Positions 1 through 60,908 of a stretch of DNA of 64,000 nucleotides are shown piece after piece. Position numbers and translations under genes: made by a program. This stretch comes from Planctomycetota bacterium (GTDB lineage: Bacteria > Planctomycetota > UBA8108 > SXIK01). The stretch's first letter is position 1; each line of letters begins with the position of its first letter. The notes below the pieces were generated by a model. That model worked only from the letters and a program-made list of their open reading frames with translations. It made no database searches and was not told where the DNA came from. The stretch is from the NCBI GenBank assembly GCA_965223265.1, contig OZ244999.1, forward strand, positions 1,920,001-1,984,000. The letters run 5' to 3'.

Positions 1-1765
1 CCAAATCGGCCGCCACCATATCTCGGGCTTCGTAGACGAATTCGAATTCGCGCGTGAATTCGAAAGAACCGTCACCGCTTCCCCGAAAGAAACCGAGTCG
101 ACAATCGAGGAATCCGGCAGCGATGTCGACGGTGCTATCGCCGTCGAAGTCTGCCGCTGCCAGAGCAAACAGGCGCCCGTTTTCATTCTCCGGTAGCCGG
201 AATTGAACTTCTGGCCCAAGGCTGCCATCTGCTCGGCCGAGTCGGACGCAAAGGCCACCGCGACTGTTCTTTTCACCTAAGTTCGCCGTGACTGCGTCGG
301 CGATTCCGTCGCCGTTGACATCGATGATACGAACTGCAGATGGAAAGGAACCCATGGGATAGAACACCGGTGGCGAAAGAAGGCCGCTCTCGGTCGCCAG
401 TCTCACCGTGAGCTCTCCTGAGGCTCGATGGAGCTGCACAACGTCATCGCGGTTGTCACCGTTCATGTCGACGACGCGAAGCCCCGCCACTTCACCGTCA
501 ACAAGGTAGAATTGGTCGAGGGCGCTGAAGCCGACGCTGCCGGGATCGCCGATCAGCAAGCTCACGTCTTCTGAGACCCGGTTGATGACTGCAAGGTCGA
601 CGTCGCCGTCGCGATTGAAGTCTCCGACTGCGACCTCGCGAGGGCTTTGACCGATCGGCATCTCCGCTGTCGGCGTCAGTGTGCCCTGGCGGTTTTCGTA
701 GCTGATTAGGCGGTCGAGATTTCGTAGGACAACGACGACGTCATTCCAACCGTCGTCGTTCAAGTCCAGGATCTCGACATCGCGCGGCCCGCCCGGCACT
801 GCGATCGATTGGATGGGTTCTGCCGAGAAGCTGAGTTTTTCACCGGAGAGCGTGCCGCGGCGGATCTCGACGGTGCCGAAGTTTCTGTGCGCCGTGACGA
901 GATCTGGAAGACCTCCTGCACGGGGAGAGGTGAGAGCGCCGACTTCCACGTCGAACACGTTTTCATCCGCACGCGTCTCAACGCTCACGATCGAGCTCAA
1001 ATCGACATTGAGCACGCCACTCTCGTCGGGTCGAAGCACCCAAATCCACTGGCTCTCGGCATTCGTGACAATCAAGTTATCGCGGTCGCTTCCCGGGCGT
1101 CTGAAGGACTTCAGTGAGTAAACGGGCTTCGGGAAGTTTCCGTCCGTGGCGGCCAATTCTGGAATGGCGCTGACACGAACGAACTCGCCGCTTTCGTCTA
1201 GGCGATAGTGCTCCAGACCGAACGGCGGTCCCGCTGTAACCAGCTCCAGCTTCCCATCGCCGTCGAAGTCACCAGTTGCCAGGTTTCTTGCACCGGACCC
1301 GGTCTCTCCGATGAGTTCGCGGTGGAAGCGGCGCATCCCGTCGTTGATGAACAAGATGGCGGCCACTGCACTGAAGGGAGCCGCGACCGCGATGTCTGTG
1401 CGACCGTCACTATTGAGGTCGCCCATCAAAACTTGACGAAGGCCTCGGGCACCTGACTCAGGAGGAAACGCGACCAAATGCTGTGGATCCAGGAATCGGC
1501 CGTCTCCGGTATTGAAAAAAAGAGTTAACGTGCCGTCCAGGTTGCTGACAGCGAGATCGAAGGCTCCATCACCGTCGAGGTCGCCTGACGCAATGCTTTT
1601 CGGGCCTTCCCGTGGCGAGAAAATGTCTGGAGCTCCGGCGTCGAGTCGTTCGCCGAAGGCCTTGAGATTCTCGAAGAGCTGTGCTTCGAGTCGGCCAGAG
1701 GTCGCCGCAAGTAGGCATAGCAACACCGCAACTCGGCTCCCGCTTCGGCTCGCCGTAATCCCCAT
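1..1765 (-). CDS. Secreted FG-GAP/VCBS repeat (beta-propeller) protein, 3' end runs off the window
   Basis: Not in the ORF track. Hand translation from ATG at 1765 (GAGG upstream) gives MGITASRSGSRVAVLLCLLAATSGRLEAQLFENL..., a signal peptide followed by repeats such as SGDLDGDGAFDLAVSN. The frame is still in register at position 2 (ARDMVAADL). Confidence 0.85.
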   Translation of the reverse strand, partial: MGITASRSGSRVAVLLCLLAATSGRLEAQLFENLKAFGERLDAGAPDIFSPREGPKSIASGDLDGDGAFDLAVSNLDGTLTLFFNTGDGRFLDPQHLVAFPPESGARGLRQVLMGDLNSDGRTDIAVAAPFSAVAAILFINDGMRRFHRELIGETGSGARNLATGDFDGDGKLELVTAGPPFGLEHYRLDESGEFVRVSAIPELAATDGNFPKPVYSLKSFRRPGSDRDNLIVTNAESQWIWVLRPDESGVLNVDLSSIVSVETRADENVFDVEVGALTSPRAGGLPDLVTAHRNFGTVEIRRGTLSGEKLSFSAEPIQSIAVPGGPRDVEILDLNDDGWNDVVVVLRNLDRLISYENRQGTLTPTAEMPIGQSPREVAVGDFNRDGDVDLAVINRVSEDVSLLIGDPGSVGFSALDQFYLVDGEVAGLRVVDMNGDNRDDVVQLHRASGELTVRLATESGLLSPPVFYPMGSFPSAVRIIDVNGDGIADAVTANLGEKNSRGGLCVRLGRADGSLGPEVQFRLPENENGRLFALAAADFDGDSTVDIAAGFLDCRLGFFRGSGDGSFEFTREFEFVYEARDMVAADL

Positions 1766-4114: not shown

Positions 4115-7100
4115 ATGAGATGCTGCCGTTTTTTTGCTACCGGACTTGTCGTCGCCGCTTTCTATTCTGCCGCTGCTCTTCATGTCGCGGCCGCGCCGCG
4201 CGGCGTTGGTGACGCCGCCGCTGAGCTCTTGGGGGCAACTGGAGTCGAGCGTGGAGTGTGCGCTGTGGTCGGAGTCGGAAGTCGTTGCGCTCGCGCGTCC
4301 GCCTTGGCGTTGGCGATCGCAGAAAGCAGTGAACTGTCCGTTCATGCGCGTCTTGCCGACCGCGCTGCCGTGTCCCCGCTCCGCGAACAGGCCCGGGCGC
4401 TCGGTTATGACTTGCGCCGGGTTGCAGTTGAAGGTGGACCGTGCGCCACGCTTCCGTATGCGACGGATCTTGTGGATCTCGTGGTCATTCCAGGTGTCGC
4501 CTCATCGGAGTTGGCCGCGCTGGATGCCGCCGAGATCCTGCGAGTGCTGCGCCCCGGAGGCTTTGCTCTGGTCGAATCGCAGGGCAACGGGGACGGTGCT
4601 TTGAACGTGGAAGCGCTACGTCGATGGGTGGACGGCATCGGCGCCACAGGTGTCGGGGTGCTCGAAGGCGTGAGCAACGGGCAGTGGGTCCGCTTCAGCA
4701 AGCCGGTGCCGGAGGGGCGAGACGATTGGAGCCACTGGGAGCACGGACCGGACAACAATCCGGTCTCCGCTGATCGCCTGATCAAAGCACCGTACATGAC
4801 GCAGTTTCTCGCCGAGCCGTTTTACATTCCGATCCCCTCGGTGACGACGGCTGCTGGCGGGCGCACGTTTCTTGCGATTGGGCATATCGCCCATCACCGC
4901 CGTGAGTGGGACATGCTCTATCAGCTCATCGCGCGAAACGGCTACAACGGGACGATTCTCTGGCAGCGCCAACTCCCTGAGGGTTATCTCGTGCATCGAT
5001 CTGCGTTTGTCGCGACCGACGACACGTTCTATATGATCGACGGCAGACACTGCCTCCAACTCGATCCACAGACCGGTGAGGAGCAGGGACGTATTCGGTT
5101 GCAGGGCGTCGCGGGGGAATGGAAATGGATGGCCAAAGTGGGGAACATTCTCTACGCGCTCGTCGGCAGCAAGGGACCAGGTACGCAAGTGATGCGAGGA
5201 GATCGTTCGTTCGGCGGTTGGAGCTGGGGCGACATGAGCCGTGGCTACTACGGCAAGCCTCGGATTCCATTTGGATTTGGGCGGAGCATCGCAGCGTATG
5301 ACCTCGACGCCGAACGAGTGATTTGGCACGAGCGCGAGGATGCCAACATCGACTCTCGCACGATGGCAATTCGCGACGGCAAGCTCTTCTATTTCTGTCC
5401 GGAAGCGCACCTCCGCGCCCGTGATGTTGCATCGGGGTCTGTTGTTTGGACCAACGACGATCAAGCCGTCCTGAACCTTATCGAGGAGCCTGGGAAGAAG
5501 CTCACTTCGACGCCTGGGTTTCGTACCGCGTGCATAGCCGTGGCGACTCCCGACGCGCTGATTCTTCAAGGTCAGACGCGAATGAACGTTGTTGCTGTTT
5601 CGACCCAGGACGGGAAGCTTCTGTGGAAGAAACCGAAGATCACGAACAATCCCAACGCTATTTTTGTCGACGACAACGTGATTCTTGCGGTCGGACCAGA
5701 AGCAAGCCACGTGGTCGTCGAGCCGAAAAGCGGCGACGTGCTCGCGAACCTCGGTTTCAAAAAGGTTGCATGCACCCGCCTCACCGCTAGCATGGATTCC
5801 TTCTTCTGTCGTGGCGAAGGAATGCTGCGATTCGATCGCTACTTCGGCAAGGTGTTGGTTGACGGTGCAGCGCGTCCCGCGTGTAACGATGGAGCGATGC
5901 CCGCAAATGGCCTTCTCTACTTGGGCCCGTGGCAGTGCGACTGCAATCTGTCGTTGATCGGCAACGTCGCCAAGTGTTCCGCTGGAGATTTTAAATTCGA
6001 CTACGTGGCCAGTGATCAGGAGCGTCTGGAACGATCGAACGGCGCAGGTGAGGTTGCCGAATTTCCTGTCTCACCGAGCGATTGGCCGACTTATCGTGGT
6101 GGCAGCCACCGCGGCGCACGCTCGGCGGCTTCTATTGCGGCTTCGGCAGAGCAATCGAAGTGGACCTATCAGGGAGAAATCGCGCATCGCCCGAGTGTCG
6201 CAGCGGCGGCCAATGGATCGCTTTTTTTCGCAGGTGACGACGGCGTCGTCCGGTCTCTCGATGCGGCGAGCGGCCGCGTCCTCTGGGAGTTTGCCACTGG
6301 TGGGCCGGTGAAGTATCCACCGACGATCGCGGCGGGTCGAGCGTTCTTCGGCAGTGGCGACGGGTACGCGTACGCTTTAGAGGCCAGCAGCGGAAAACTC
6401 CTGTGGCGATTTCGTGCTGCACCTATTGAGCGCCATATTATGGTCTATGGGACTCTCGGCTCGACGTGGCCAGTGCACAGCGGCGTCCTGGTACATGGTG
6501 GCGTGTGTTACTTCGCGGCCGGGATCATTGATCAAGACGGTACGTATGTCTACGCTCTCGACGCTGCGAGCGGAAAGGTGAAGTGGCAGAACAATTCGTC
6601 CGGGCATCTCAACAAGCAGTTGCGTAAGGGCGTCAGTGTGCAGGGGAATCTGACTCTCTCCGGCGATCGTCTACTTTTGGCGGGCGGCAACCAAGTTTCT
6701 CCGGCGCCGTATGACCTCGGCAGCGGTCGATGTTTGGCGAAGAGTTTTGAACAAGGACGGCCCAAGGCGAACAATGGAAATTTCCTTGGCATACTGCGCG
6801 GTGAAACCGCGATTGTCGGCGGACGCGTCCTTTATTCAGCGCCGCAGAATGTGTCAACCAAAGGGAGCTTCGAGCTCACATCGCCGACGAGGAAAATGCG
6901 GTTGAACTACGGGGGCGTGGCGCCGGCGTGGAATAGCGACGTCGTGGCGATGGTTAATTTTAAATACGGTAAGCTCATGGCGTGCGACATCGGGTCGGTC
7001 GTGAAGAGTTTCGAGTCCGGCGATCTTGGAGGAGCCCGGACCATTGCAGAAGCTCTCGCGCGCGACGGCGAGGTCCTTTGGCAGTCGGACCTCGGTCGCG

Positions 7101-7345
7101 CGGAGAAGTTCGAGGTGCTGTCACTTGCGATGTCGGCGAATGCCGTCGTTGCCGTCGCTCAGTACCAACATCCTCACCGCGCTCACCCCCAATGGACCGT
7201 CGTCGCCTATGACCTGAAGAACGGCGAGGAACTCTCTCGCGTGAGGCTCGACCAAGAACCACTTCCTGGCGGACTTTTGATCGACCGAGATGGCAGAATT
7301 GTCGTCAGCCTCATCGATGGAGGCATGATCTGTTGGGGAGCTTGA
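4115..7345 (+). CDS. Exported protein with a class I methyltransferase-like domain and PQQ/BamB-like beta-propeller repeats
   Basis: Signal peptide, then LPY..DLVDLVV and EILRVLRPGG (MTase-like), W.HWEHGPDNNPVS, and repeated YALDAASGK..W propeller blades. Confidence 0.75.
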   Translation: MRCCRFFATGLVVAAFYSAAALHVAAAPRGVGDAAAELLGATGVERGVCAVVGVGSRCARASALALAIAESSELSVHARLADRAAVSPLREQARALGYDLRRVAVEGGPCATLPYATDLVDLVVIPGVASSELAALDAAEILRVLRPGGFALVESQGNGDGALNVEALRRWVDGIGATGVGVLEGVSNGQWVRFSKPVPEGRDDWSHWEHGPDNNPVSADRLIKAPYMTQFLAEPFYIPIPSVTTAAGGRTFLAIGHIAHHRREWDMLYQLIARNGYNGTILWQRQLPEGYLVHRSAFVATDDTFYMIDGRHCLQLDPQTGEEQGRIRLQGVAGEWKWMAKVGNILYALVGSKGPGTQVMRGDRSFGGWSWGDMSRGYYGKPRIPFGFGRSIAAYDLDAERVIWHEREDANIDSRTMAIRDGKLFYFCPEAHLRARDVASGSVVWTNDDQAVLNLIEEPGKKLTSTPGFRTACIAVATPDALILQGQTRMNVVAVSTQDGKLLWKKPKITNNPNAIFVDDNVILAVGPEASHVVVEPKSGDVLANLGFKKVACTRLTASMDSFFCRGEGMLRFDRYFGKVLVDGAARPACNDGAMPANGLLYLGPWQCDCNLSLIGNVAKCSAGDFKFDYVASDQERLERSNGAGEVAEFPVSPSDWPTYRGGSHRGARSAASIAASAEQSKWTYQGEIAHRPSVAAAANGSLFFAGDDGVVRSLDAASGRVLWEFATGGPVKYPPTIAAGRAFFGSGDGYAYALEASSGKLLWRFRAAPIERHIMVYGTLGSTWPVHSGVLVHGGVCYFAAGIIDQDGTYVYALDAASGKVKWQNNSSGHLNKQLRKGVSVQGNLTLSGDRLLLAGGNQVSPAPYDLGSGRCLAKSFEQGRPKANNGNFLGILRGETAIVGGRVLYSAPQNVSTKGSFELTSPTRKMRLNYGGVAPAWNSDVVAMVNFKYGKLMACDIGSVVKSFESGDLGGARTIAEALARDGEVLWQSDLGRAEKFEVLSLAMSANAVVAVAQYQHPHRAHPQWTVVAYDLKNGEELSRVRLDQEPLPGGLLIDRDGRIVVSLIDGGMICWGA

Positions 7346-7406
7346 CGACTCCGATCTTCACTCAACGTCTCTAAACGCCAAGCGAAGCGTTCGACAATGT
7401 CGTCTC

Positions 7407-10400
7407 TCACGCGTCGCACGGCAGGAACGCCTGGCATGTGAGCGTATCTGCCGTGACGTCGAAGTCGCAATTCTCGGCAGGCTGCGGGAGAGGCGAGCCG
7501 CCGGCGAAGAGGCGGAGCAGAATCGTGACGGCGTCGGTGACGGTGATTTTGCCGTCGTCATTGGCGTCCGCGGCTTTAACACAGCTTGGCTCAGTGCCGC
7601 GCCTGAAGAGAAATCCGAGAATTGAAAGCGGGTCCGCGACGTCCAGCTGGGCGTCGGCGTTCGCATCGCCGCGGCGAAATGCGACGTCCCCGCGTGGATC
7701 GATTTCGCCACGCTCGAAACTCGTCACCGACGGCGTGCCGATGACATCAAAGCTCTCGTCGAGATAGAGAACACTTGCCTCCTTGACTACTGGGGGAGGA
7801 CCGCCTTCGAACTCGCGGTCCGGAACCCCAATCTCTATCACTCGGACCGGTTTCTCGAGGCTCGGAAGAACGAGCATCGGCTCTAGCACGACCCAGTACT
7901 TGACCTCGACGTTGTGTCGACGCGCACTGTAGGCAAGACGCCAGTAGTCGGTTTCCGTTCGAACTTCACCTTCCAGCTCGACTCGGGCACGAGTGAGGCT
8001 TGCAGGACCGGTCTCCGTAAGACTCTCCGCCTCGAGGAATCGTTCCTCCAGGTGGATGACCGAACCGTCGTCGAGGCCGATGTCCATAGCGAACAGTGGC
8101 AACAGTTCGTAGCGGCATGAAGAGTAGCTGGCGACAGGCACGTCATTGAGGGAGCCAATCATCGACAGTTCGGACGTGAGGTACTCTTCGTCAAGCGCGC
8201 GCTGTCTCTGGAGTGGGACGCCCCCGCGGCTTTTGAAGTTGACATCGAAAATCTCGAGCTTGAGGGAGTCTCCGTTCGGAAGCACGAACGATTGCTCGAA
8301 ATCGAAGCGGTAGGTGACGTCGCTGCCGGTAGCCCCAAGTCGGCGAACTCGAAACAGGCCGTCGTCGAGTGGATCCGCGAGGAGCTGTTCGGGACCAAAA
8401 CGCACTTCGTCAAAGAGCTCTCCGGAGAAAGAGTCGCTACCGGTTGGTAGTTCCAAAATACCTGGTTTGAACTGAGCAACGCTCTTGAGCTCATACTCGA
8501 CACGCGGGCCGCGGCCGAGTCGCTCTCCGGAGAACACCGCGCAAGCCGAAGTTCCTTCTTCGATCGCTAATTCGAATGTCGGAGACTGGGGTACGGTGCT
8601 CGGCACCAGGAACGGTCGCACCTGTTTTACGGCGAGCGACCCATCACTTTCGATCTTGAACTCAAAATCCAGCAGCACTTCCTCGCGGTCATGGCCTTCG
8701 AGGTCGAGCGGTAGGTTCGCATCGACGTGCGCCATGAGTGCGCCTAACTCTCGCAGCTGATCATCCGTCATCACTGTCTCTCCCGGGGCAACAAGAGAGG
8801 AACTTCGTTCGCGAATGATTCGAGCAACTTGGCCGGACTCGATTTCGAGCAGGTTGCGTTCGACTGTGGTTCCTGGCTCTGGGCTGACGACACTCGCCTC
8901 ACCAACCTGTGCCGTGATCACATAGCGCTTGTCTGCCGTGTTTCGTGGACTACCGGTGAAAGCAACGCCGTTGACCGCTTCGTCAAGGAAGGCGCGGTTG
9001 ACCAGGATTCCCATCGCGATCGAGTCAGCGGGGACCTGAAAGAACGTTCGCTCCTCGTGGGCCCGAAACGTCCACAGACTGGTCCATACCTTCTTCAATG
9101 CCCTCTCGATCGTTCGTTCGTTCGTCCGCTGAGAGTCGCAGTGCGAGCTGTCGGGGCTAGAGGGGTCGATCGTGTCTTCAGCGCAGACGGACGTCGATTC
9201 ATAAAGCCCCGCGCCGCTGAACTCGAGTGTATCTTCGAGGTTCGAAGAAGATCGAAACCTCACCATGGTTCGAGTGCCCCCGAACACTTCTGAGATCCGC
9301 GCGATCAGTTGCGCGACGAGGTCCGGATCCACGATTCCTTCGCTACGAGCGCGATCGCGAAACTGATCGAGCGCTACGAATCGCTGCTCAGAGTCGCTCT
9401 GGAAATCGTCGTTGGCGATCAGCTCTTCGATGTAGTCACGATATGTGACTTCACGACCGTCGACGGTCAGGGTGTTCGCTTCCATGAACTCGAGGTAGTA
9501 GCGAACAGGAATGGCGAAACCGGCTTCCTGGTACTGCACGAACGGACCCGTCAGTTGGCGCTGCAGGCGCGCTAAGTTGGTCGCTTTGCCGCCGAACCTG
9601 GCGACTGGCGTAAACGTTTCGGTGGCGAGTAGATCCATCTCGTGAAATTGGTCGAGGCCGCCGTACGCCACGTCGAGCGTCGGAGTGGTCGGTAGAGACG
9701 GCCGGCTACTACTCCAGAATTCTTGAGCTTCTTCGATCGTTGCCGCGTCTACGAAGTACTGGTCGGCCAAGACCTGCAAGCGGACGAGCTGACCGGCCCA
9801 AGGGGTGAAGGCCTCGCGAGCATCGCGCACGAATGCGTTGGGCGTCCCGCGTCTTGCTGTACGTACGGCGACATGGCTCAAACTGCCTTGGATCGCGCCG
9901 GTGATGACGCCGCCGACGACGCCTTCTATGTCTCGAGGTGCCTCATCCACGACGATCACATCCTGAAACGTCAATCGCCCGCTATCGCTCGCCTCTTCGA
10001 ATTCGGCCAGCGTCAGCAGGCGCACTCGACCGTAGCCAACCGCGATGGTGTACGGCTCATAGTCGATGCCTGGGTCTCCACTCTCGAACAGAATGTCGAA
10101 GGGTGGGTTTGTCCACTCCTCCGCACGTCGGCGTGCGAGGTCGCCCTCGGGTTGGTATACGAGCGGTCGCAGGTCGAACGACTGCTGCAGAGTGTCATAA
10201 ACCGCTTGAACCTCTTCAAGCAGGAGCAGCTCTTGCACATCAAAGCCGGTGTCTGCGACCACTGAAAAGGCGTAGACGATGCCGTTTGGCGTTTCAGTCC
10301 GCAAAATCGCTCCAATGTAATAGTCGCGTGTGGCACGACGTCCGACGAGTGTGTCGAAGAAGTCCCGATCGTCCGGCAGCGTCGGAAACATCTCCGGAAA

Positions 10401-12863
10401 GACGCCCCCCAGAAATTCTTCGTGGAGGCGCCAGCGGTTGATGTTCTGAAAGTGTGTCGGTAGTAGGTTCGGGTCGTCGCGCACTGGGACGATATACTTC
10501 GTCGCACGCAAGGCAGAACCGGATGACTGCAGAGGAAGAGAGATTCGAAAGAAATCCGCCGCGGTGCACACGTCTGTGAGCGCATCGGCTGCGAAGGGCG
10601 CCACGTCCAGGGCATTGCGCACAACCGAGACGGTTCCCGTCAATCGATTCGCGATGGCTAAGTCGATGCTGCCGTTGCCGTCCAGGTCGCCGCTGCTGCC
10701 GAATCGCGGCTCGCTTTCGACTTGGATCTCGATCGGCGCTCCGAAGGTGCGATCTGGTCGTGTGATGAGGAGCGCCACGGTGCCTCCGTTCACGCTCATG
10801 CCGATGACATCGGGGCGTCCATCACCGCTGATGTCATCGGTTACCAAGGAATAGATCGGCAAGCCGTTTGCGGGTGCGTTCGTCTCGTCCCACTGCCCAC
10901 CGCCGTTATTCCACAGCACCGCGATCGAGCGTCCCGATTCGCTTCCCGTGGCAAGATCGACGCGTCCGTCTTGATCGAAGTCATTGGCGACGATGAAATT
11001 CGGGCGCTCCGTGACGAACACGCTAACCGGAGGTCGAAACACTCCCGGCGACGCCTGCTCGAGCAGCGTCACTTCTCCGGATCCGATCCCGGCCGTCGCG
11101 ATGTCCAGGTCTCCGTCGTGATCGAAATCGACGACGACACTGGCGCGAGGGATGCTCCCGACACGCAGCTCCTGTTCGCGAACGAAAGTGCCGTCGCGCT
11201 GATTCCGTAGCACAGTTACCGTGCTCACGGTTGGATTCGATGTTACGAGCTCCGGATATCCGTCGTCGTCGAGGTCGCCGCTCGTGATGTGAAATGCCCC
11301 CGAGCCGACGTCGTAAGTTGGGCCGAGTGCGAATGCACCCTGACCGTCGTTGAGCAGCAGGCCAGCGATGCTGAAACGAGGATCCACCACAGCCATGTCG
11401 AGATCGGAGTCTGCGTCGATGTCCACGAGCCTCAAGTTGAACGACGCCAAGTGGGACTCGACGTGCGTTGGGCCCGTGAACGTACCGTCGCCGTTGTTCA
11501 TGAACACCGAATAACCGACGGGCGAATTCATTCGATTGTTGCCCGTCACGATATCGATGTCACCGTCGCCGTCGAGGTCGCCAGAGCTCTCTGAGTGAGG
11601 GAAACCATCGACGATCAGTCGTTCTGGTGGGTGGAACGGGATGAAGTTCCGCTCCGCGCGCTCGTCGTTCCAGAGAAGCGTGGCTGTCTCGTTCCCAACC
11701 ACCGTGAGCGTTAGCTCTTTGTCACCGTCGCCGTCGAGGTCGAAGGCGCCAGCAGCGGCCGGCCGCCGTCCGAGATTCAGTGCGCTGATATCGAACGTAC
11801 CACTGTCAGTCCCGCGAAACACGACAGTCCCTTGTGGATTGCTCACAACGGCGATCAAATCGCTGTGCCCATCGCCTGCGAGATCTGAAGTCAGCAGCTG
11901 GTCCGGCGCAAAGCTGACGCGAAGCTGACGAGATTCAAGCGCTCCGGTTTGGCTTTGTAACAGGACGTCGATTCCATCGCGGTAGCCGACGGCGAGGTCC
12001 GCACGGCCGTCACCATTGAAGTCTCCAGCCGCCAGGTGTTCAGGCCTTTCCCGATTCAGGGGCAGCCGCTCTGCAACTGCGAAGGCGCCATCGCCATCGC
12101 CGCGTAGTATCGAGAGGTCAGAAGAGTCGCGGTTTGCCGTGACGACATCCAAAGCTCCGTCGCCGTCGAGGTCGGCTACGACAACCGCGGCTGGGTACTC
12201 GCCAACAGCATACTCACGGAGCGACGGCTGCACGCCATTCTCCCCTGTGTGCAAGGCGACCGTGACGTTGTCGCCAACACGGTTGGCGACGACCAGGTCG
12301 CTCGCAGAGTCGTTCGAGAACTGGCCGACGGCGAGCGCCTGCAGTCCGTTCGCCAGCGGCGTGCCTTCCGGCACTGCAAAAGTACCCGCACCATCGCCGT
12401 AGAGGATTACAAAGCGCGAAGGTTGGAGCGCGGCCAAGTCGGAGCTGCCATCGCCGTTGAAGTCGCCGACACACCAAGCCTTGGTACGTCCCTCCAGCAG
12501 AGTCCGCGACGTCGAAAACTGTGTTTCTGGTCCAGATTCAGGGCCTGTCGCGTCCCGGAGGGCTAACGTGACGCCGTCGACGTTTCCTGCCGCAATGTCC
12601 GCCAAACCGTCGCCGTTGAAGTCGGCGCTCGTCACGGAATGGGAGCTCAGTCCGACACCTAGCAGCGTTCGGGTCCGGAGCGCAAGAGGCGCGGCTTCGC
12701 ACTCATCTGGGATGAGGTTGTCATTGCAATCGAGACTTGCACCCGACGCTGTTTCGTCGGCATCTGTCAGGCCGCTGAAATTGCAGTCTGCTGCGTCGAT
12801 GCCACCGCCGAAAAAGAGCACCAACGACGCAGGTAAGAGAAGAAATAGCCCGAAGCGATTCAT
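7407..12863 (-). CDS. Exported FG-GAP repeat protein fused to a PEP-utiliser phospho-His domain, a PPDK-type ATP-grasp domain and a C-terminal dockerin-like domain
   Basis: 1818-aa ORF with signal peptide, DCN..PDEC motif and many D(F/L)(N/D)GDG..D(L/I) repeats. Dikinase motifs: GSLSHVAVRTARRGTPNA, FGGKATNLARL, FRSSSNLED..FSGAGLYES, ALKKVWTSLW, DFEFK..KQVRP. Tail FRRGDANADAQLDVADP..ADANDDGKITVTDA. Confidence 0.85.
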   Translation of the reverse strand: MNRFGLFLLLPASLVLFFGGGIDAADCNFSGLTDADETASGASLDCNDNLIPDECEAAPLALRTRTLLGVGLSSHSVTSADFNGDGLADIAAGNVDGVTLALRDATGPESGPETQFSTSRTLLEGRTKAWCVGDFNGDGSSDLAALQPSRFVILYGDGAGTFAVPEGTPLANGLQALAVGQFSNDSASDLVVANRVGDNVTVALHTGENGVQPSLREYAVGEYPAAVVVADLDGDGALDVVTANRDSSDLSILRGDGDGAFAVAERLPLNRERPEHLAAGDFNGDGRADLAVGYRDGIDVLLQSQTGALESRQLRVSFAPDQLLTSDLAGDGHSDLIAVVSNPQGTVVFRGTDSGTFDISALNLGRRPAAAGAFDLDGDGDKELTLTVVGNETATLLWNDERAERNFIPFHPPERLIVDGFPHSESSGDLDGDGDIDIVTGNNRMNSPVGYSVFMNNGDGTFTGPTHVESHLASFNLRLVDIDADSDLDMAVVDPRFSIAGLLLNDGQGAFALGPTYDVGSGAFHITSGDLDDDGYPELVTSNPTVSTVTVLRNQRDGTFVREQELRVGSIPRASVVVDFDHDGDLDIATAGIGSGEVTLLEQASPGVFRPPVSVFVTERPNFIVANDFDQDGRVDLATGSESGRSIAVLWNNGGGQWDETNAPANGLPIYSLVTDDISGDGRPDVIGMSVNGGTVALLITRPDRTFGAPIEIQVESEPRFGSSGDLDGNGSIDLAIANRLTGTVSVVRNALDVAPFAADALTDVCTAADFFRISLPLQSSGSALRATKYIVPVRDDPNLLPTHFQNINRWRLHEEFLGGVFPEMFPTLPDDRDFFDTLVGRRATRDYYIGAILRTETPNGIVYAFSVVADTGFDVQELLLLEEVQAVYDTLQQSFDLRPLVYQPEGDLARRRAEEWTNPPFDILFESGDPGIDYEPYTIAVGYGRVRLLTLAEFEEASDSGRLTFQDVIVVDEAPRDIEGVVGGVITGAIQGSLSHVAVRTARRGTPNAFVRDAREAFTPWAGQLVRLQVLADQYFVDAATIEEAQEFWSSSRPSLPTTPTLDVAYGGLDQFHEMDLLATETFTPVARFGGKATNLARLQRQLTGPFVQYQEAGFAIPVRYYLEFMEANTLTVDGREVTYRDYIEELIANDDFQSDSEQRFVALDQFRDRARSEGIVDPDLVAQLIARISEVFGGTRTMVRFRSSSNLEDTLEFSGAGLYESTSVCAEDTIDPSSPDSSHCDSQRTNERTIERALKKVWTSLWTFRAHEERTFFQVPADSIAMGILVNRAFLDEAVNGVAFTGSPRNTADKRYVITAQVGEASVVSPEPGTTVERNLLEIESGQVARIIRERSSSLVAPGETVMTDDQLRELGALMAHVDANLPLDLEGHDREEVLLDFEFKIESDGSLAVKQVRPFLVPSTVPQSPTFELAIEEGTSACAVFSGERLGRGPRVEYELKSVAQFKPGILELPTGSDSFSGELFDEVRFGPEQLLADPLDDGLFRVRRLGATGSDVTYRFDFEQSFVLPNGDSLKLEIFDVNFKSRGGVPLQRQRALDEEYLTSELSMIGSLNDVPVASYSSCRYELLPLFAMDIGLDDGSVIHLEERFLEAESLTETGPASLTRARVELEGEVRTETDYWRLAYSARRHNVEVKYWVVLEPMLVLPSLEKPVRVIEIGVPDREFEGGPPPVVKEASVLYLDESFDVIGTPSVTSFERGEIDPRGDVAFRRGDANADAQLDVADPLSILGFLFRRGTEPSCVKAADANDDGKITVTDAVTILLRLFAGGSPLPQPAENCDFDVTADTLTCQAFLPCDA

Positions 12864-13351
12864 GTCGACCGAGAATCCTTGGTACTTTCACATGCATGCA
12901 GTTGCCCCCGGACGTAACGCTTGTCGCCTGCTGGTGGTTCCCGCGAGACGCTTCGCCTTCTACGAGCAGTCCATCCTACCGGTTAGCGAACGCCGAGGGA
13001 ACGTTCCTTCCGGGGGTTGTGAGCTGCCGCCGGGCTGGGGTTCATAAGATGTTGCGTCGCCGCGAGATTTTCCCGATCCTCTTCGTTGACGCGGACGCCA
13101 AATCTGACAGCTCCCACTGGTGGTGGGTGCTCGAGGTTCGCCTGGTCTTCGCGGCTCTAGTAGGGGCTGTGCGTCGGTGTTGATTCTATAGACGGCTGAA
13201 CCTCGAACGTCTTGTCGGTTGCGGCATTCGGTTCATGCTTGCGTGCGCGCCGGCGCCTGCGCGGCGTCGTGCGAATGACCCGCCGACGAGAGGGTCTTGA
13301 ATCGGTTGACTCTACCACTGTCACGACTGAGACTTTGACGGGGAGAACCTT

Positions 13352-14923
13352 ATGCCACGCGTAGCCTGTTTTCTGGCCCTTCTCTTGCCTGTCCTGGCTG
13401 TGTTGTCAGCGGCTGAACCGATCGGCGAAGTGCTCACCGAACCTGTTGACCCAGCCGAGGTGAGGACGACATGGCGCAATCTTGCCAACGAGCAGGTGAT
13501 CTATCCGCTCAGTATGAGCGACGTTCCGGTGCGGCTTGACTCTTCGCACCAACTTTTTCTCGATAATTACCTCATCGCCGAGTCTGACAAAGTCACACGA
13601 CAAGTTCACGAACCGACGCGACATCCAAACAACCCGATCTTCAAGGCGTCTCCCGCCCAGTTCAACCATGCCGTCGTCCAGCACGTGCTCAAGTTTGAGG
13701 CGGCTCCAAGGTTTCGTATGTGGTACTGGTCGTGGGACAACTGGCAGACGCTCCCGAGTGGCCAACGAATTCGGCACGCCTCAAGCTACGCCGTAAGCGA
13801 TGACGGCGTCCATTGGATCAGGCCAGAGCTTGGACTCCACGAGGTGGAGGGATTGCAGGGACCGAACAATGTCGTTGTGCCCTATGGCATGATTCAAGGC
13901 GTTTTCTATCACCCGCAGGCAAGCGATCCCGACCAGCGCTTTAAGGCTCTCGTCTGTGTTGAGAGGAAGAATCCCGTGGTGCGCGAGGGTTACTATTTGC
14001 ACACGTCACCGGACGGGATCCGCTGGCGAGGTGATCTCTCGCACCCGGTGCTTCCCAGCCTCCTCAGCACCTACTACTTGCCACAAGGTGGGGTCGGCGA
14101 TACCTCGCGTTTTTGGTGGGATCCCGTGCGGCGTAAGTATGTGGGTGACATCAAATTCGTCATCTACGGCACCGAGCGTGCTCGCGGCACGATCGAGAGC
14201 GATGATTTGGTTCACTGGTCGCGGGCGACGCCGACGTTCCTCGCGCGCCGCAGTGACGAGACACAGATTTACGGACATCGCGGCTTCAACTACCAGGGGA
14301 TGTACATCGGGATGCGGTGGATTTTCGTTCCCGCCCGCAGTCAACGTCATTCGACGTACGTTGAGCTCGACTGCAGCCGCGATGGCAGGATCTGGACTCG
14401 CGTCGGCGCTGGCCAACCGTTCATGAGCTTCCGCGACCAACACGACACTTGGGATGCGTCGATCGTACGACCTGTCGCGATGCTCGAGGTCGGTGACGAA
14501 GTCTGGGTCTACTATTTCGGTGCACCGACTGAGTTGGAGTCGCGTCACCCGAATCTGCCGGCGCACCATAAAACTGATTACGCTCTGGGGTTGGCTACGC
14601 TACGGCGTGATCGATTCGTCTCCATCAACGCTAGCGATGACGTCGGTCTTTTGATCACGCGCCCACTCAATTTCACAGGTGACAGATTGCGAGTGAACGC
14701 CGTTGTCCACGAGGGCGGCAGCATCCGGGTGGGTGTGGTGGATCGAGACGGTCGACCGATGGCGGGCTACGAATCGGGGAGGTGCACACCGCTCGGCGGC
14801 GATGAGATTGATGTCCCGGTATCGTGGGCTGAAACGGACACGCTGGGCGGACTGCAAAATTCCGGCGTGCGTCTTCGGTTTGAAATGCGGCGAGCGCAGC
14901 TGTTTTCCTTCTGGATCGACTGA
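13352..14923 (+). CDS. Secreted five-bladed beta-propeller protein, glycoside hydrolase clan GH32/43/130-like
   Basis: Signal peptide, QLFLDNYLI, repeated S.DG..W (Asp-box-like) motifs, and a C-terminal LATLRRDRFVS..LRVNA..LFSF beta-sandwich. Substrate unknown. Confidence 0.6.
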   Translation: MPRVACFLALLLPVLAVLSAAEPIGEVLTEPVDPAEVRTTWRNLANEQVIYPLSMSDVPVRLDSSHQLFLDNYLIAESDKVTRQVHEPTRHPNNPIFKASPAQFNHAVVQHVLKFEAAPRFRMWYWSWDNWQTLPSGQRIRHASSYAVSDDGVHWIRPELGLHEVEGLQGPNNVVVPYGMIQGVFYHPQASDPDQRFKALVCVERKNPVVREGYYLHTSPDGIRWRGDLSHPVLPSLLSTYYLPQGGVGDTSRFWWDPVRRKYVGDIKFVIYGTERARGTIESDDLVHWSRATPTFLARRSDETQIYGHRGFNYQGMYIGMRWIFVPARSQRHSTYVELDCSRDGRIWTRVGAGQPFMSFRDQHDTWDASIVRPVAMLEVGDEVWVYYFGAPTELESRHPNLPAHHKTDYALGLATLRRDRFVSINASDDVGLLITRPLNFTGDRLRVNAVVHEGGSIRVGVVDRDGRPMAGYESGRCTPLGGDEIDVPVSWAETDTLGGLQNSGVRLRFEMRRAQLFSFWID

Positions 14924-14955: not shown

Positions 14956-15933
14956 CTACGCGTGATCGCATCCGAAGAGGTTAACGCTGAACATCCTATC
15001 GTCGTCCGTCCAGGAGGTTTCGATTCGCAGATCGGCGGCGGCGGCTAGATTCTCGATGTCGTCGCGGGAGTACTTGTAGGAATTCTCCGTGTGGATCGAT
15101 TCGCCTCGCTCGAACTCCACGTCCATGCCAAGCTCTTCGATGCGGATCGTTTGATCTGTCTTGCTGACGAGATGCATTTCGATGCGGCTACGTTGTGATT
15201 CGAATCTTGCGTGGTGGTGAAAGCGATCCAAATCAAAATCGCCGTCGAGCTCGCGATTGATGCGTGACAGAAGGTTCTTGTTGAAACGGGCTGTAACACC
15301 TTCGTCGTCGTTGTACGCTTGTTCGAGCTTTTCGGTGCTCTTGTGGAGATCGATTCCGACGAGAAGCTTGTCTTGGGGCTTCATCGCAGATCTCACGCGA
15401 CACAGGAACTCCTCGGCGTGCGATGGTTCAAAGTTGCCGATGCTCGAGCCGAGCCAAGCGATGAGTCGTTGAGGGTGATCGCGCATTCTGTCGAGGAGGT
15501 TCACAACGCACTCGTAGGTGCCGACAGTCGACGCGATGCTGAGCTGTGGGTAGTCAGTTGCGAGGTCATGTGTGCTTTCTTCGACCGCTGCTGCAGAGAT
15601 GTCCAGAGGGCAGTAGAGAAAGGACTTCCGGAGTGCAAGGAACGCATCCAGTAGAACACGCGTCTTGCGGCTGCTGCCGCTTCCGAGCTCAACCAAACTC
15701 GTGCAAGCCGGAAGCTGCGCGGCGACGTCTTCGCAGCAGCTGCGAAGAATCTCGGTTTCTTTTCGCGTCAGGTAGTAGGAATCGAGCGAGCAAATCTCTT
15801 CAAACAACTCGGAACCATGGTCGTCATAGAAGTATTTGAACGGCAACGTCTTTTCCGGACGACTCAACCCTGCTTGCACATCTTTTGCGAAGTCATCATT
15901 CTGCACTTGCGTGCGCTGATCTAGGATGGACAC
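14956..15933 (-). CDS. egtD: L-histidine N-alpha-methyltransferase (ergothioneine biosynthesis)
   Basis: KTLPFKYFYDDHGSELFEEIC, YYLTRKE, VELGSGSSRKT, LGSSIGNF, AYNDDEGVTARFNKNLL, IHTENSYKY. GTG at 15933 chosen as start; the ORF extends to 16047. Confidence 0.93.
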   Translation of the reverse strand: MSILDQRTQVQNDDFAKDVQAGLSRPEKTLPFKYFYDDHGSELFEEICSLDSYYLTRKETEILRSCCEDVAAQLPACTSLVELGSGSSRKTRVLLDAFLALRKSFLYCPLDISAAAVEESTHDLATDYPQLSIASTVGTYECVVNLLDRMRDHPQRLIAWLGSSIGNFEPSHAEEFLCRVRSAMKPQDKLLVGIDLHKSTEKLEQAYNDDEGVTARFNKNLLSRINRELDGDFDLDRFHHHARFESQRSRIEMHLVSKTDQTIRIEELGMDVEFERGESIHTENSYKYSRDDIENLAAAADLRIETSWTDDDRMFSVNLFGCDHA

Positions 15934-16303
15934 GGTCCGTTCCCTGTCCGTACAGATGCCTCTTCCGATGTTCGTATCGTTTGGCACGTCTCTTCCTTTC
16001 GCTACTGAGAAGCTTCTTGGTGTACATGATGAGAGCAGCCGCATCAACCGTCACGGTTTAGAGACCGTCGACTTGCGTCCATGCGCGGTTCGCTATGCAG
16101 TGATCGTCAGTCGTACCCCGTGCGAGCGCCGCTCGTACATGACTTGCTCGACACGCGCATAGCAATGAAGACCGTACTGTGGTACGGTGTTGCGACACTT
16201 CACGAACCGTGCGGTTCCGAGATTCCCGTGTGTGTCTACGCGGGCGCACCGTGTTCCGTGCGCATCCGCGTTCATCGTACTCTCCGCGCTGGAGCGACGA
16301 AGG

Positions 16304-17077
16304 TTGAGGCCGACGGATTCGATTCTTGAATTGAGAGGTGTTTCGAAATCGTTCGGTGAGACGACCGTTTTGCATGGCGTTGATCTCGACGTTTTCGCTC
16401 AAACGACGACGGCACTCATCGGGCCGAGTGGTTCCGGCAAATCGACTCTGCTGCGGCTCATGAACGGCCTTTTGAGTCCCGATCTTGGCGAGGTGCGCTT
16501 TGATTCGCAGCTCGTCGACTCCAGTCCCGCGCTCGAACTACGTCGACGCATGGGCTACGTCATCCAAGATGGGGGGCTTTTTCCACATTTGACGGCGAGC
16601 CGCAATGTGACGCTACTCGCTCGTCATCTTCGCTGGTCTGAGAAGCGCATCGAAGGACGCCTCGACGAGCTCGTCGATTTGACGCATTTTCCACGCGATG
16701 GACTCGACCGTTATCCCTCGGAGCTCTCGGGCGGGCAACGCCAGCGCGTCGGGTTGATGAGGGCACTGATGCTGAACCCCGACGTCCTACTTCTCGATGA
16801 ACCGCTCGGTGCGCTTGATCCGTTGATTCGTTCGGAGTTGCAAGAGGAGTTGCGACAGATTTTCGTGACGCTTGGAAAGACCGTCGTGATCGTCACTCAC
16901 GACCTGGCGGAGGCCGCTTTTTTTGCCGATCGCTTGGCGCTTTGCAACCACGGTCGGATCGTGCAGATCGGTTCGTACTCTGAGCTCGTGAACGAGCCAG
17001 CCGAGGCGTTCGTAACACGATTCGTCCAGGCGCAGCGGGCATTGACCGCTGGTTCTTCCTCTGGAGACGCCCCATGA
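16304..17077 (+). CDS. ABC transporter ATP-binding subunit, osmoprotectant/quaternary amine (OpuA/ProV-like) family
   Basis: Walker A GPSGSGKS, GYVIQDGGLFPH, LSGGQRQR, LLLDEP, VTHD. TTG start at 16304 follows GGAG (ORF open from 16187). Confidence 0.9.
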   Translation: MRPTDSILELRGVSKSFGETTVLHGVDLDVFAQTTTALIGPSGSGKSTLLRLMNGLLSPDLGEVRFDSQLVDSSPALELRRRMGYVIQDGGLFPHLTASRNVTLLARHLRWSEKRIEGRLDELVDLTHFPRDGLDRYPSELSGGQRQRVGLMRALMLNPDVLLLDEPLGALDPLIRSELQEELRQIFVTLGKTVVIVTHDLAEAAFFADRLALCNHGRIVQIGSYSELVNEPAEAFVTRFVQAQRALTAGSSSGDAP

Positions 17078-18579
17078 CGCATCGCAGGCGTTTTCGACTT
17101 TCCGTTGCTTTCGTCGTGGCAGCGTTCGTGCCGTCGTTGTCTGCCGGTGAGGAACCGATCGTCGTCGGATCGAAGAAGTTCACGGAGTCGGTCGTGCTCG
17201 GCGAGATGCTGCTTCAGGTCGGTCGTTCCACCGGGGGGAGCATCGTCCATCAAAGGGAGTTCGGCGGCACGCGCATCCTCTGGAATGCTCTTGTCCGCGG
17301 CGATATCGACGCATACCCCGAGTATAGCGGAACGCTCTTGCGAGAGATCCTGGCCTCCCACAACGTCGAATCTATGGACGAGGCAAGGCCAGTTTTGGAG
17401 AGCTATGGGATTCGAACCAGCGGCGCTCTCGGTTTTAACAACACTTATGCGATCGGCGTCTTGCGCGAAATTGCGAAAAGTCGTTCGTTGAGCAGGGTCT
17501 CCGATCTGAGGGCCCACTCCGACCTAAGATTCGCCTTCAGCAACGAGTTCATGGAGCGGCAGGATGGATGGGACGCACTGCGTCAACGCTACTCCTTACC
17601 CCAAACGGATGTGAGGGGGATGGACCATGATTTGGCCTACCGCGGCCTTCTCTCAAAGGCAGTTGATGCCACGGACTTCTATGCGACGGATGCCGAGATT
17701 TCGCATCATTCGCTCATGGTCTTAGACGACGACCTGAAGCACTTTCCGCGTTACGACGCTCTTATCCTCTTTCGAGCTGACCTCGAGACAAGGGCGCCAA
17801 AGGTCGTGGCGGCAATGCGCCGACTCGAGGGGCGCATCGATGCCGTAGTGATGACGAACTTGAACCGTGAAGTGAAGTTTGGCGGTGCATCTGAAGCTGA
17901 AGTCGCTGCCGGGTTTCTTCGCGAAGCGCTGAGTCTGTCGATCGTCGTCGACAACGAAACGAGGGCCACTCGGCTTCTCAGGCACAGCCGCGAGCATTTG
18001 ACGCTGGTCGGCGTGTCCCTTCTGGTTGCTGTGTTGATCGCCGTTCCACTGGGCATCGTCGCGGCGAAGAGACCATGGCTCGGACAATTCGTTTTGGCGG
18101 CGACGGGAATTCTTCAGACGATTCCGTCGCTTGCGCTGCTCGTGTTTATGATTCCACTTCTTGGTATCGGCAAACCTGCTGCTGTTGCCGCCCTCTTCTT
18201 TTACAGCCTGCTGCCGATTGTTAGGAATACACACGCTGGCCTTTGTGGGATTCGCCCGGATTTGCGCGAGTCGGCAGAGGCGGTCGGGTTGCCACCTCGC
18301 GCGCGGTTATTTCAGATCGAGCTCCCACTTGCGTCCCCTTCGATCCTTGCGGGAATCAAGACCGCAGCCGTGATTAACGTCGGCACAGCGACGTTGGGCG
18401 CGTTGATTGGTGCCGGAGGACTCGGATCGCCCATTCTTACGGGGATTCGACTCGATGACTATGGGCTCATTCTTCAGGGGGCGATTCCTGCTGCTGGTCT
18501 CGCCGTCGCGATACAAGTGGCTTTCGATGTCGCCGAAAGATTCTTAGTCCCACGTGGTCTGAGGTTGCAACGTCAATGA
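17074..18579 (+). CDS. Fused substrate-binding protein and permease of a betaine/ergothioneine-type ABC transporter
   Basis: N-terminal OpuAC-type binding domain (GSKKFTES, YPEYSGT, GFNNTYA, YATD, FPRYDA) and C-terminal permease (QTIPSLAL, ESAEAVG..IELPLA, GAGGLG). 4-nt overlap with the ATPase gene. Confidence 0.9.
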   Translation: MTHRRRFRLSVAFVVAAFVPSLSAGEEPIVVGSKKFTESVVLGEMLLQVGRSTGGSIVHQREFGGTRILWNALVRGDIDAYPEYSGTLLREILASHNVESMDEARPVLESYGIRTSGALGFNNTYAIGVLREIAKSRSLSRVSDLRAHSDLRFAFSNEFMERQDGWDALRQRYSLPQTDVRGMDHDLAYRGLLSKAVDATDFYATDAEISHHSLMVLDDDLKHFPRYDALILFRADLETRAPKVVAAMRRLEGRIDAVVMTNLNREVKFGGASEAEVAAGFLREALSLSIVVDNETRATRLLRHSREHLTLVGVSLLVAVLIAVPLGIVAAKRPWLGQFVLAATGILQTIPSLALLVFMIPLLGIGKPAAVAALFFYSLLPIVRNTHAGLCGIRPDLRESAEAVGLPPRARLFQIELPLASPSILAGIKTAAVINVGTATLGALIGAGGLGSPILTGIRLDDYGLILQGAIPAAGLAVAIQVAFDVAERFLVPRGLRLQRQ

Positions 18580-18642
18580 TGCGCGCCTCGAGCTGCGGGC
18601 GGAGAGTCTTGCACCTGCAGGTTGAAAGTACGGAGTGATCAC

Positions 18643-36155: not shown

Positions 36156-36176
36156 CGCGTGCGCTGGAGTCATGTG

Positions 36177-50246: not shown

Positions 50247-50266
50247 GCCACTTCGCAGGTCGAACG

Positions 50267-55990: not shown

Positions 55991-56026
55991 CAAGCGAGCC
56001 GACGGCGTCGCTTGTCGTCATTTTTT
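55991..56026 (+). terminator. Possible intrinsic terminator between convergent genes
   Basis: Hairpin CAAGCGAGCC-GAC-GGCGTCGCTTG followed after a few bases by TTTTTT. The spacing is imperfect. Confidence 0.3.
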
Positions 56027-60637: not shown

Positions 60638-60908
60638 CGAGTCGCTTTCCCGAGCGCCTTCGGAAGCCTTCACGTGGTGACAGACACCCATCAGAATGAG
60701 GCCTTGACGAGGGGTTCTCAAATGAAATCGGTCCAGCGTGATCGACCACCGTGTGGAGTTTTTTCTTCTTTTCTTCTCTGCCCCTTCTTGGTCTCCTGGC
60801 AGCCTCCATCTCGCGTCTGGAGCGCGGAGAGATTGTCACGAATCGATTCAAGTCGGCCGATCGTCGTGCGGTCGAAGATCTTCGTTCGGAGCTACGAGAC
60901 TCGAAAGG

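Follow-up and report, generated by a model that had tools for sequence, protein, structure and literature searches.

A putative exported dikinase of the glucan, water dikinase type fused to FG-GAP repeats in a Planctomycetota genome, and its relatives

The stretch of DNA analyzed here (the window) comprises 64,000 nucleotides, positions 1,920,001 to 1,984,000 of contig OZ244999.1 from a Planctomycetota bacterium (GCA_965223265.1), and the gene of interest lies on its minus strand at window positions 7407-12863, where it forms one unbroken open reading frame (ORF) of 1818 amino acids (aa). Read from the N- to the C-terminus, the encoded protein comprises a predicted signal peptide, about 14 FG-GAP repeats, a conserved domain that we call the N-domain, a phosphohistidine (His) swivel domain, an ATP-grasp domain, an all-beta domain and a dockerin-like, Cys-rich tail. 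A first-pass annotation, made from the sequence letters, had described it as an exported dikinase with the domain order of glucan, water dikinase (GWD); its ORF span and all of its quoted motifs were located as stated (LSHVAVRTARRG at residue 995, GGKATNL at 1091, RSSSNLED at 1204, GAGLYES at 1217, KKVWTSLW at 1257 and KQVRP at 1413), and its codon for the catalytic His997, 9873-9875, is exact. The observation is thereby confirmed, and the analysis below supports its architectural interpretation.

All features of this gene lie on the minus strand. The probable Sec signal peptide (residues 1-24; 12792..12863), assigned by heuristic, starts with MNR and shows n-, h- and c-regions: a basic residue, an 18-residue hydrophobic core and a candidate cleavage site between IDA and AD. 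It is followed at the predicted mature N-terminus by two acidic, Cys-containing motifs, DCNFSGLTD and DCNDNLIPDECE (residues 25-60; 12684..12791), which resemble EF-hand or dockerin loops and recur in 33/33 full-length paralogues. The FG-GAP region (residues 61-769; 10557..12683), a variable module with a probable targeting function, was recognized by Pfam (FG-GAP_3, E 1e-58, 196 bits, 10 stretches; FG-GAP, E 4.5e-28, 97 bits), in agreement with the first-pass annotation. A regular expression for the FG-GAP loop caught 13 loops, one of them spurious, and two more were found by eye, at a spacing of about 49 aa; the resulting ~14 repeats probably form two seven-bladed propellers. The N-domain (residues 770-929; 10077..10556) is a conserved alpha/beta domain of 160 aa, modeled with pLDDT >85, that abuts the GWD-type His domain (residues 930-1065; 9669..10076) and is the proposed acceptor binder. 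The nucleotide-binding ATP-grasp domain (residues 1066-1423; 8595..9668) contains a PPDK_N match at residues 1089-1420 (64 bits, cut-off 27) and the conserved Cys1227/Cys1242 pair. Behind it lie the all-beta domain (residues 1424-1722; 7698..8594), a variable accessory module with the conserved Cys1441/Cys1583 and an RHN motif, and a dockerin-like double Ca-loop module with a Cys-rich tail (residues 1723-1818; 7410..7697) that carries C1761, C1799, C1810 and C1816.

The PEP/pyruvate TIM barrel (PEP-utilizers_C) that the first-pass annotation had reported missing has no Pfam match in the 1818-aa protein, and the region past the ATP-grasp domain is all-beta in the structural model. NCBIfam equivalogs for PEP synthase, PigC/RedH and rifampicin phosphotransferase (RPH) matched only far below threshold. 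The gene is solitary, convergent with a gene for a PQQ-like propeller protein (4115-7345) and divergent from a 523-aa ORF of no recognized family (13352-14923). The fusion of propeller and dikinase is not an assembly artefact: single Logan contigs from three of four runs (one study, possibly the source sample) cover positions 7000-13300 with 0 differences, the genome holds 33 intact full-length paralogues, and the same architecture is found in far more than 100 independently assembled proteins. Joints of 20 letters within 10.7-12.6 kb of the contig data were disregarded, since they derive from paralogous FG-GAP repeats.

To what enzyme class does the core belong? Two AlphaFold2 models were built from an 84-sequence alignment, one of residues 770-1725 (pLDDT 92.7, pTM 0.83) and one of residues 770-1075 (pLDDT 94.3). 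In these models the His segment takes the fold of a phosphohistidine swivel domain, in which a short helix (228-236 of the model) starts with His997; the catalytic His residues of GWD1 (His992), RPH and PPDK likewise stand at the start of a short helix (PMC13553574). The residues H997, R1001, R1005, K1093, R1202, R1204, E1210, D1211, E1401, K1403, Q1414 and R1416 are invariant in 33/33 paralogues and in at least 118 of 120 homologues, and the family profile aligns the motifs GGK1093, R1202-x-R1204-SSSN-x-E1210-D1211, E1401-x-K1403 and Q1414-x-R1416 with their PEP synthase counterparts. With both superfamily features present, the PPDK_N (PF01326) ATP-grasp domain and a swiveling His domain whose catalytic His opens a short helix, the protein is a member of the PEP-utilizing dikinase superfamily.

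Within this superfamily, the His domain is of the GWD type and not of the PEP-utilizer type, as judged from profile comparisons. The classical Pfam family PF00391 (PEP-utilizers) matched six classical genes of this genome (PpsA, PPDK and PtsI-like; E <= 0.01) and no copy of the family, and it matched 0/43 short relatives from other organisms; because PF00391 never matched the family, a classical His domain was rejected. PF22973 (GWD1_pHisD), scanned over the genome at E <= 1, gave 25 matches, all of them within family copies, at the expected position and below threshold, and it weakly matched 10/43 of the short relatives. Searching the PDB with the single sequence by phmmer returned noise and dockerins only, so that a profile was needed. 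In hhalign comparisons, the His domain of the family aligned with the His domains of bacterial GWD homologues at a probability of 94.5% (E 7.9e-8, 101 columns) and with the PEP-utilizer domains of the same genome at 1.5% (E 0.033, 68 columns). Furthermore, the His and ATP-grasp domains together were collinear with the bacterial GWD homologues (99.2%, E 1.3e-19, 320 columns). This collinearity, together with the position of His997 ahead of PPDK_N, bears out the GWD domain order that had been read from the letters.

Several lines of evidence support export of the protein, as the extracytoplasmic placement in the first-pass annotation had anticipated. In 33/33 full-length paralogues a hydrophobic segment directly precedes the conserved DCNxNGxxD, often after an A-x-A-like site, and the two short paralogues also have a hydrophobic leader, so that leaders are found in 35/35 genomic copies. 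Among homologues that start with Met, 99/121 full-length and 47/62 short sequences passed a hydrophobicity heuristic, and some have lipobox-like sequences. Eight Cys residues (C1227/C1242, C1441/C1583, C1761, C1799, C1810 and C1816) are invariant in the 120 homologues and the 33 paralogues, a pattern that would be expected for disulfides in an oxidizing compartment. Finally, the fusion partners across the family are all of extracellular type, namely FG-GAP, LTD (lamin-tail), Lcl_C, CHB_HEX_C, beta-helix, fn3, BNR, TSP3, dockerin, EF-hand and CHAT.

The membership of the gene in a widespread family, with 35 paralogous copies in this genome, had been missed by the first-pass annotation. The genome is a single contig of 9,179,496 bp in which the core is matched 36 times (33 intact full-length copies, two short ones and one fragment), and its PPDK_N domains are confined to PpsA, PPDK and the copies of this family. 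Mean identity among the 33 full-length paralogues is 31% in the propeller, 47% in the N-domain, 56% in the His domain, 61% in the ATP-grasp domain, 40% in the beta domain and 52% in the dockerin tail. Such a combination of 33 copies with near-constant cassettes and very different propellers suggests one chemistry directed at many ligands. One further paralogue lies in the window itself (29096-34510, plus strand), encodes 1804 aa with FG-GAP and PPDK_N, and shares 52% identity in the core region. Upstream of it is a DUF1501 gene (27502-28890, minus strand), and downstream are a 417-aa unannotated ORF and two CARDB proteins (34902-42265).

Neighboring paralogues share stretches of DNA, 2.06-3.26 kb long and 95.7-98.3% identical, which start at gene position ~2200-2550, that is, at the end of the propeller, and reach either into the beta domain or as far as the 3' end, whereas the propellers of the same pairs are only 32-41% identical as proteins and cannot be aligned by blastn. 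Tandem clusters with such near-identical cassette tracts are located at 8234828-8282301, 4619814-4642276 and 2309095-2320562 of the contig (G000:C1). Synonymous and non-synonymous differing codons in the tracts of four pairs number 41:12, 34:17, 64:45 and 46:8. From this identity mosaic and the synonymous excess, the sequences indicate that the cassette is exchanged or was recently copied between paralogues under purifying selection, and the tandem clusters, with their sharp boundary at the propeller end, point to gene conversion or cassette exchange. The copy studied here has no recent exchange partner; with its nearest paralogue it shares 68-69% identity in the core.

Around the family copies, FG-GAP proteins are the most frequent neighbors (31 ORFs near 20 copies). 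A large FG-GAP repeat protein that has no dikinase core is also encoded at window positions 2-1765 (minus strand) and extends past the window start (G000:C1 1917914-1921765). The only recurrent neighbors of the 36 copies, other FG-GAP proteins and the DUF1549/1553-DUF1501 pairs that are ubiquitous in planctomycetes, were judged to be there by chance or to have no relation to the paralogy.

The family is not confined to this genome. In 28 of 40 other genomes sampled there are 1-10 matches each, a search of 1.84 billion cluster representatives recovered 2537 proteins at E <= 1e-3 and 821 at <= 1e-30, and a scan of species-representative genomes yielded at least 567 related stretches. The relatives occur in phyla of the Planctomycetota-Verrucomicrobiota-Chlamydiota (PVC) group, in Myxococcota and in Chloroflexota; the taxa among the matches listed are Planctomycetota, Verrucomicrobia, Omnitrophota, Kiritimatiellae, Myxococcales, Anaerolineae and Caldilineae. 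Their public names are hypothetical protein, FG-GAP-like or VCBS repeat-containing protein or, at most, PEP/pyruvate-binding domain-containing protein. Forms of ~700 aa span only residues 770-1420 (query 1-650), so that the minimal conserved unit consists of the N-domain, the His domain and the ATP-grasp domain. In Myxococcales-type loci, a downstream ORF of 402-466 aa is unrelated to the beta domain and has no consistent Pfam family.

The same core is also carried by giant proteins of 3336-6419 aa (L062 779-11632, plus strand; P0191; P0193), and in the first two of these it is set among beta-helix, CHB_HEX_C, Fn3_assoc, LTD, fn3 and TSP3 modules. In a preprint about giant Omnitrophota proteins, PPDK_N is named among their frequent domains and their localization is given as uncertain (10.1101/2023.11.21.568195). 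The same class also has a more distantly related family of 720-810 aa, with a hydrophobic leader, EF-hand repeats (3/5), a weak GWD1_pHisD match (3/5) and a C-terminal PPDK_N (5/5), which resembles a second family of exported dikinases with the His-first order (L086 1116-3557; L087 1651-3822; L088 1787-4219, minus strand; L089 1052-3385; L090 1823-4063, minus strand).

At two loci from other organisms (L052 2077-11948 and L066 5815-10375), a family gene of ~760 aa is preceded by genes for FtsE, FtsX and an M23 peptidase, in this order, and followed by an ORF, a CotH kinase gene and an S41 protease gene. This CotH neighborhood gives a further hint of envelope kinase chemistry, from two loci only that are possibly kin.

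If the core is catalytic, where might an acceptor bind? In characterized relatives the acceptor is held by a third conserved domain: PPDK uses its TIM barrel, RPH its rifampin-binding domain and GWD its central domain. The GWD1 central domain is directly joined to the His domain (PMC13553574). In the family studied here, K789, H814, R843, R846, E878, E884 and Y903 of the N-domain are invariant in 33/33 paralogues and Y848 is conserved in 32/33, and all eight residues are near-invariant across the 120 homologues. Since the N-domain is the sole other universally conserved domain, is directly joined to the His domain and has invariant polar residues, we infer that it is a candidate acceptor site. 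Searches within multidomain models gave no convincing structural relative for the N-domain or the beta domain, and the ESM Atlas returned one lead for the N-domain at 0.79, below a useful level, and none for the beta domain.

The first-pass annotation had instead proposed that the propeller captures the acceptor. The propeller is, however, an accessory module that family members of ~700 and ~1070 aa do not have, and the acceptor site is therefore more likely to be the conserved 160-aa domain before the His domain. Because the propellers and the beta domain both vary and the short forms dispense with them, these modules most likely provide targeting. As for the tail, Dockerin_1 (PF00404) scored 15.9 bits in this copy against a cut-off of 22.9 (E 0.015); the family profile matched solved type I dockerins at E 2.4e-5, and the relatives P0175 and P0204 scored ~30 bits, above the Pfam cut-off. 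Three cohesin-like domains above cut-off are encoded in the genome, and the dockerin-like tail probably holds the protein on a cohesin-bearing scaffold in the periplasm or at the cell surface.

Taken together, we hypothesize, with a confidence a little better than even, that the protein is a water dikinase of the His-swivel type that works outside the cytoplasm, with the conserved N-domain binding the acceptor and the propeller providing the targeting. The mechanism is proposed by homology to GWD, RPH and PPDK. The ATP-grasp domain (1066-1423) would bind a nucleoside triphosphate, His997 of the swivel domain would receive the beta-phosphate and a water molecule the gamma-phosphate, and the swivel domain would then rotate and hand its phosphate to a hydroxyl of the acceptor held by the N-domain (770-929), with the FG-GAP double propeller and the beta domain behind the ATP-grasp domain serving as exchangeable targeting modules. 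The ATP-grasp domain is structurally closest to those of RPH and HpeI, both of which phosphorylate hydroxyl groups of organic acceptors. Given this proximity and the extracellular, glycan-associated modules of the family, the ligands would most plausibly be extracellular or periplasmic glycans or other polymers, with a hydroxyl as the phosphate acceptor. It is an attractive guess that phosphorylation might loosen or solubilize insoluble polymers, by analogy with the action of GWD on starch.

Several observations weigh against this reading. The PF22973 score of the present copy is 12.8 bits (E 0.52) and that of the best paralogue 24.4, against a cut-off of 27, and the profile scores of the ATP-grasp domain show no clear preference for GWD-like proteins over PpsA (TIM-type GWD-like 115-125, PpsA 94, CBM45-type 65-68, PPDK 45). 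The acceptor is a guess, because the N-domain and the beta domain match no recognized fold or ligand. The signal peptide and its cleavage site were derived from heuristics plus the family-wide pattern, and the leader has no twin-arginine motif for exporting a folded, preloaded protein, so that an enzyme charged in the cytoplasm could not be exported through a Sec-type route. To our knowledge, no ATP pool outside the cytoplasmic membrane is known. Furthermore, the surroundings of the 36 genomic copies revealed no conserved operon partner, and the sequencing runs listed include no RNA run.

A rival explanation is an extracellular nucleotide scavenger, for which water is the sole acceptor, ATP is converted to AMP and two phosphates, phosphate is gained from dissolved or prey-released ATP, and the propellers act as tethers only. 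An intact catalytic apparatus on an exported protein and the lack of a recognized acceptor-binding fold agree with such a role, and water is already one acceptor of established water dikinases such as GWD and PEP synthase. However, a strictly conserved N-domain and 33 different propellers are hard to fit with simple hydrolysis, for which far simpler phosphatases or nucleotidases suffice, and we consider this explanation improbable.

About equally improbable, in our judgment, is that His997 is charged from a donor other than ATP, such as polyphosphate, pyrophosphate or a phosphorylated polymer, or that the reaction runs in reverse with AMP or another ligand in the ATP-grasp domain. PPDK is known to be reversible with pyrophosphate and AMP, and an extracytoplasmic location disfavors ATP. 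Nevertheless, the phosphate- and Mg-binding motifs of the ATP-grasp domain are all invariant and align with those of ATP-using PEP synthase and RPH, and a domain that could bind a donor, such as the PEP/pyruvate TIM barrel, is absent.

The closest structural match being a rifampin phosphotransferase, it may also be imagined that the protein is a delivered effector that works in lysed or attacked prey or competitor cells or their contents, where it depletes ATP or phosphorylates an antibiotic-like target as RPH does. The presence of the family in predatory or attached lineages (Myxococcota, Omnitrophota) would be in keeping with this, and the pairing of one constant cassette with targeting modules that vary is reminiscent of polymorphic effector systems. 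We regard it as slightly less probable still, given that the invariant disulfide-type Cys pairs in the catalytic domain indicate an oxidizing workplace, that the dockerin-like tail suggests retention on the producer, and that neither a secretion-system gene nor an immunity gene is a consistent neighbor.

Catalytic activity is so far a prediction, and adhesion-type modules abound in the protein (FG-GAP and the dockerin-like tail) and its relatives (LTD), as one would expect if the protein were an adhesin or binding protein that retains a pseudo-enzyme core as a scaffold. This seems very improbable, as the catalytic residues including His997 are invariant in 33/33 paralogues and nearly so in the 120 homologues, and the His and ATP-grasp core is the most conserved part of the protein (56-61% identity, vs. 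31% in the propeller) and is under purifying selection. A misassembled fusion, or a cytoplasmic protein with a mis-called start, has nothing in its favor beyond the short spurious joints that the FG-GAP repeats draw among paralogues in the contig data, and with the whole gene on single contigs of three of the four runs (0 differences), 33 intact paralogues and many independent assemblies, its probability is negligible.

Returning to the extracytoplasmic water dikinase, a broader proposal is that phosphorylation driven by nucleotides takes place on a large scale outside the cytoplasmic membrane in the PVC group, in Myxococcota and in Chloroflexota. These bacteria would use modular, tethered GWD-type dikinases in which one cassette has been recombined onto dozens of propellers, and would thereby loosen recalcitrant extracellular glycans or polymers before their degradation. 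We advance this as a possible but rather doubtful extension. If it were true, planctomycetes would supply their periplasm or cell surface with ATP or some other phosphodonor in a way not yet recognized, and among prokaryotes the His-first architecture, a possible ancestor of eukaryotic GWD, would reside mainly in this family. If the enzymes are active, they would in themselves form a new class of auxiliary enzymes that serve polymer turnover outside the cytoplasm, and one would have to ask by what path a phosphodonor, ATP or other, arrives in the periplasm or at the surface; this would come as a surprise for dikinase enzymology as well as for envelope bioenergetics. The combination of a cassette with variable propellers also offers a natural experiment on the evolution of substrate targeting.

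Other genes of the window are recorded here for completeness. An ergothioneine-type pair (14956-19995) consists of a Methyltransf_33 histidine-specific methyltransferase (14956-16047, minus strand) and a protein with DinB_2 and FGE-sulfatase domains (18622-19995, plus strand), between which lies a glycine-betaine-type ABC transporter (16187-18579). At 42616-45749 (minus strand), a 722-aa Ser/Thr protein kinase is directly followed by an FGE-sulfatase-domain protein. A Planctomycetes-typical pair of PSCyt2/PSD1 (DUF1549/DUF1553) and DUF1501 genes is located at 47286-51712 (plus strand), and an Lhr-type helicase of 1567 aa is encoded at 56018-60721 (minus strand).

Genuine GWD homologues also exist in bacteria of the same phylum. 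Scanning 201 genomes of the phylum with PF22973 revealed them in six, with scores up to 116 bits. They are of two types. The CBM45-type homologue (1158-1184 aa, leaderless) combines two Ig_N_CWD1 domains with GWD1_pHisD and PPDK_N and adjoins a GT5-like glycosyltransferase, and in the TIM-type GWD-like paralogue, which occurs in tandem with it, an N-terminal xylose-isomerase-like TIM barrel replaces the carbohydrate-binding modules (L095 5951-9505 and 2440-5949, both minus strand; L097 1621-5097 and 5143-8844, both plus strand). The bacterial homologues read LVSHLSVRAR and LSHLGVRAR around the catalytic His, which bears out the plant motif given in the first-pass annotation as LSHVSVRAR or LSHLGVRAR. 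GWD is treated as a hallmark of eukaryotic starch metabolism in a 2026 preprint (10.64898/2026.09.25.754361); the cytoplasmic homologues in this phylum make a bacterial ancestry of GWD directly testable by phylogeny.

How, then, does the exported protein compare with known systems? The first-pass annotation knew of no described system of this kind, and our literature searches agree: no papers were found that join Planctomycetes, FG-GAP and dikinase, the literature searched on bacterial GWD and GWD origins contained no description of such a family, and no His-swivel dikinase was found described as exported. CotH-family and other extracytoplasmic kinases likewise combine secretion signals with extracellular modules, and at the two loci mentioned above a CotH gene lies two genes downstream of the family member; however, CotH-type enzymes are protein-kinase-like and have no phosphohistidine swivel, and their fold and chemistry are unrelated to those of the protein studied here. 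Split phenol-type dikinases (HpeI of Rhodococcus, PDB 9goj; phenylphosphate synthase; AcvAB-like) differ in being multi-subunit and cytoplasmic and in having neither propeller nor dockerin.

PpsA and PPDK belong to the same superfamily, share aligned PPDK_N motifs and follow the same swiveling-His logic, but in them the ATP-grasp domain comes first, followed by a PF00391 His domain and a TIM barrel, whereas here the His domain comes first and neither PF00391 nor a TIM barrel is present. The reversed order and these two absences rule out a PPDK or PEP synthase identity, and the NCBIfam PEP synthase models scored 26-36 bits against cut-offs of 598-883. RPH (RPH-Lm, PDB 5hv1/5hv3/5fbs) is cytoplasmic and has the order ATP-grasp, rifampin-binding domain and His, again the reverse of the present protein, in which no rifampin-binding domain was detected; with this differing order and a score for the RPH equivalog NF041857 (15.3 bits) far under its cut-off of 999, an RPH identity was also ruled out.

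The nearest relatives are thus GWD and PWD, with which the exported protein shares the His-first order and the type of His domain (StGWD1, PMC13553574). The differences are nevertheless substantial. GWD is plastidial or cytosolic and its bacterial homologues are leaderless, whereas the present protein is predicted to be exported. The starch modules of GWD (CBM45/Ig_N_CWD1 or CBM20) have no Pfam match in it, although the CBM45 type is present in the bacterial homologues. The GWD1 central domain (aa 483-926) is all-helical, with 20 helices over ~440 aa (PMC13553574); in the present protein its place is taken by a 160-aa mixed alpha/beta domain. FG-GAP propellers, a beta domain and a dockerin-like tail are additional to the GWD plan, and GWD1_pHisD remains below the Pfam cut-off. 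A strict GWD or PWD identity was rejected on the grounds of the missing starch-binding module, the missing helical central domain and this sub-threshold match, and the protein is best classed among the His-first (GWD-type) water dikinases, of which it forms a new, exported variant.

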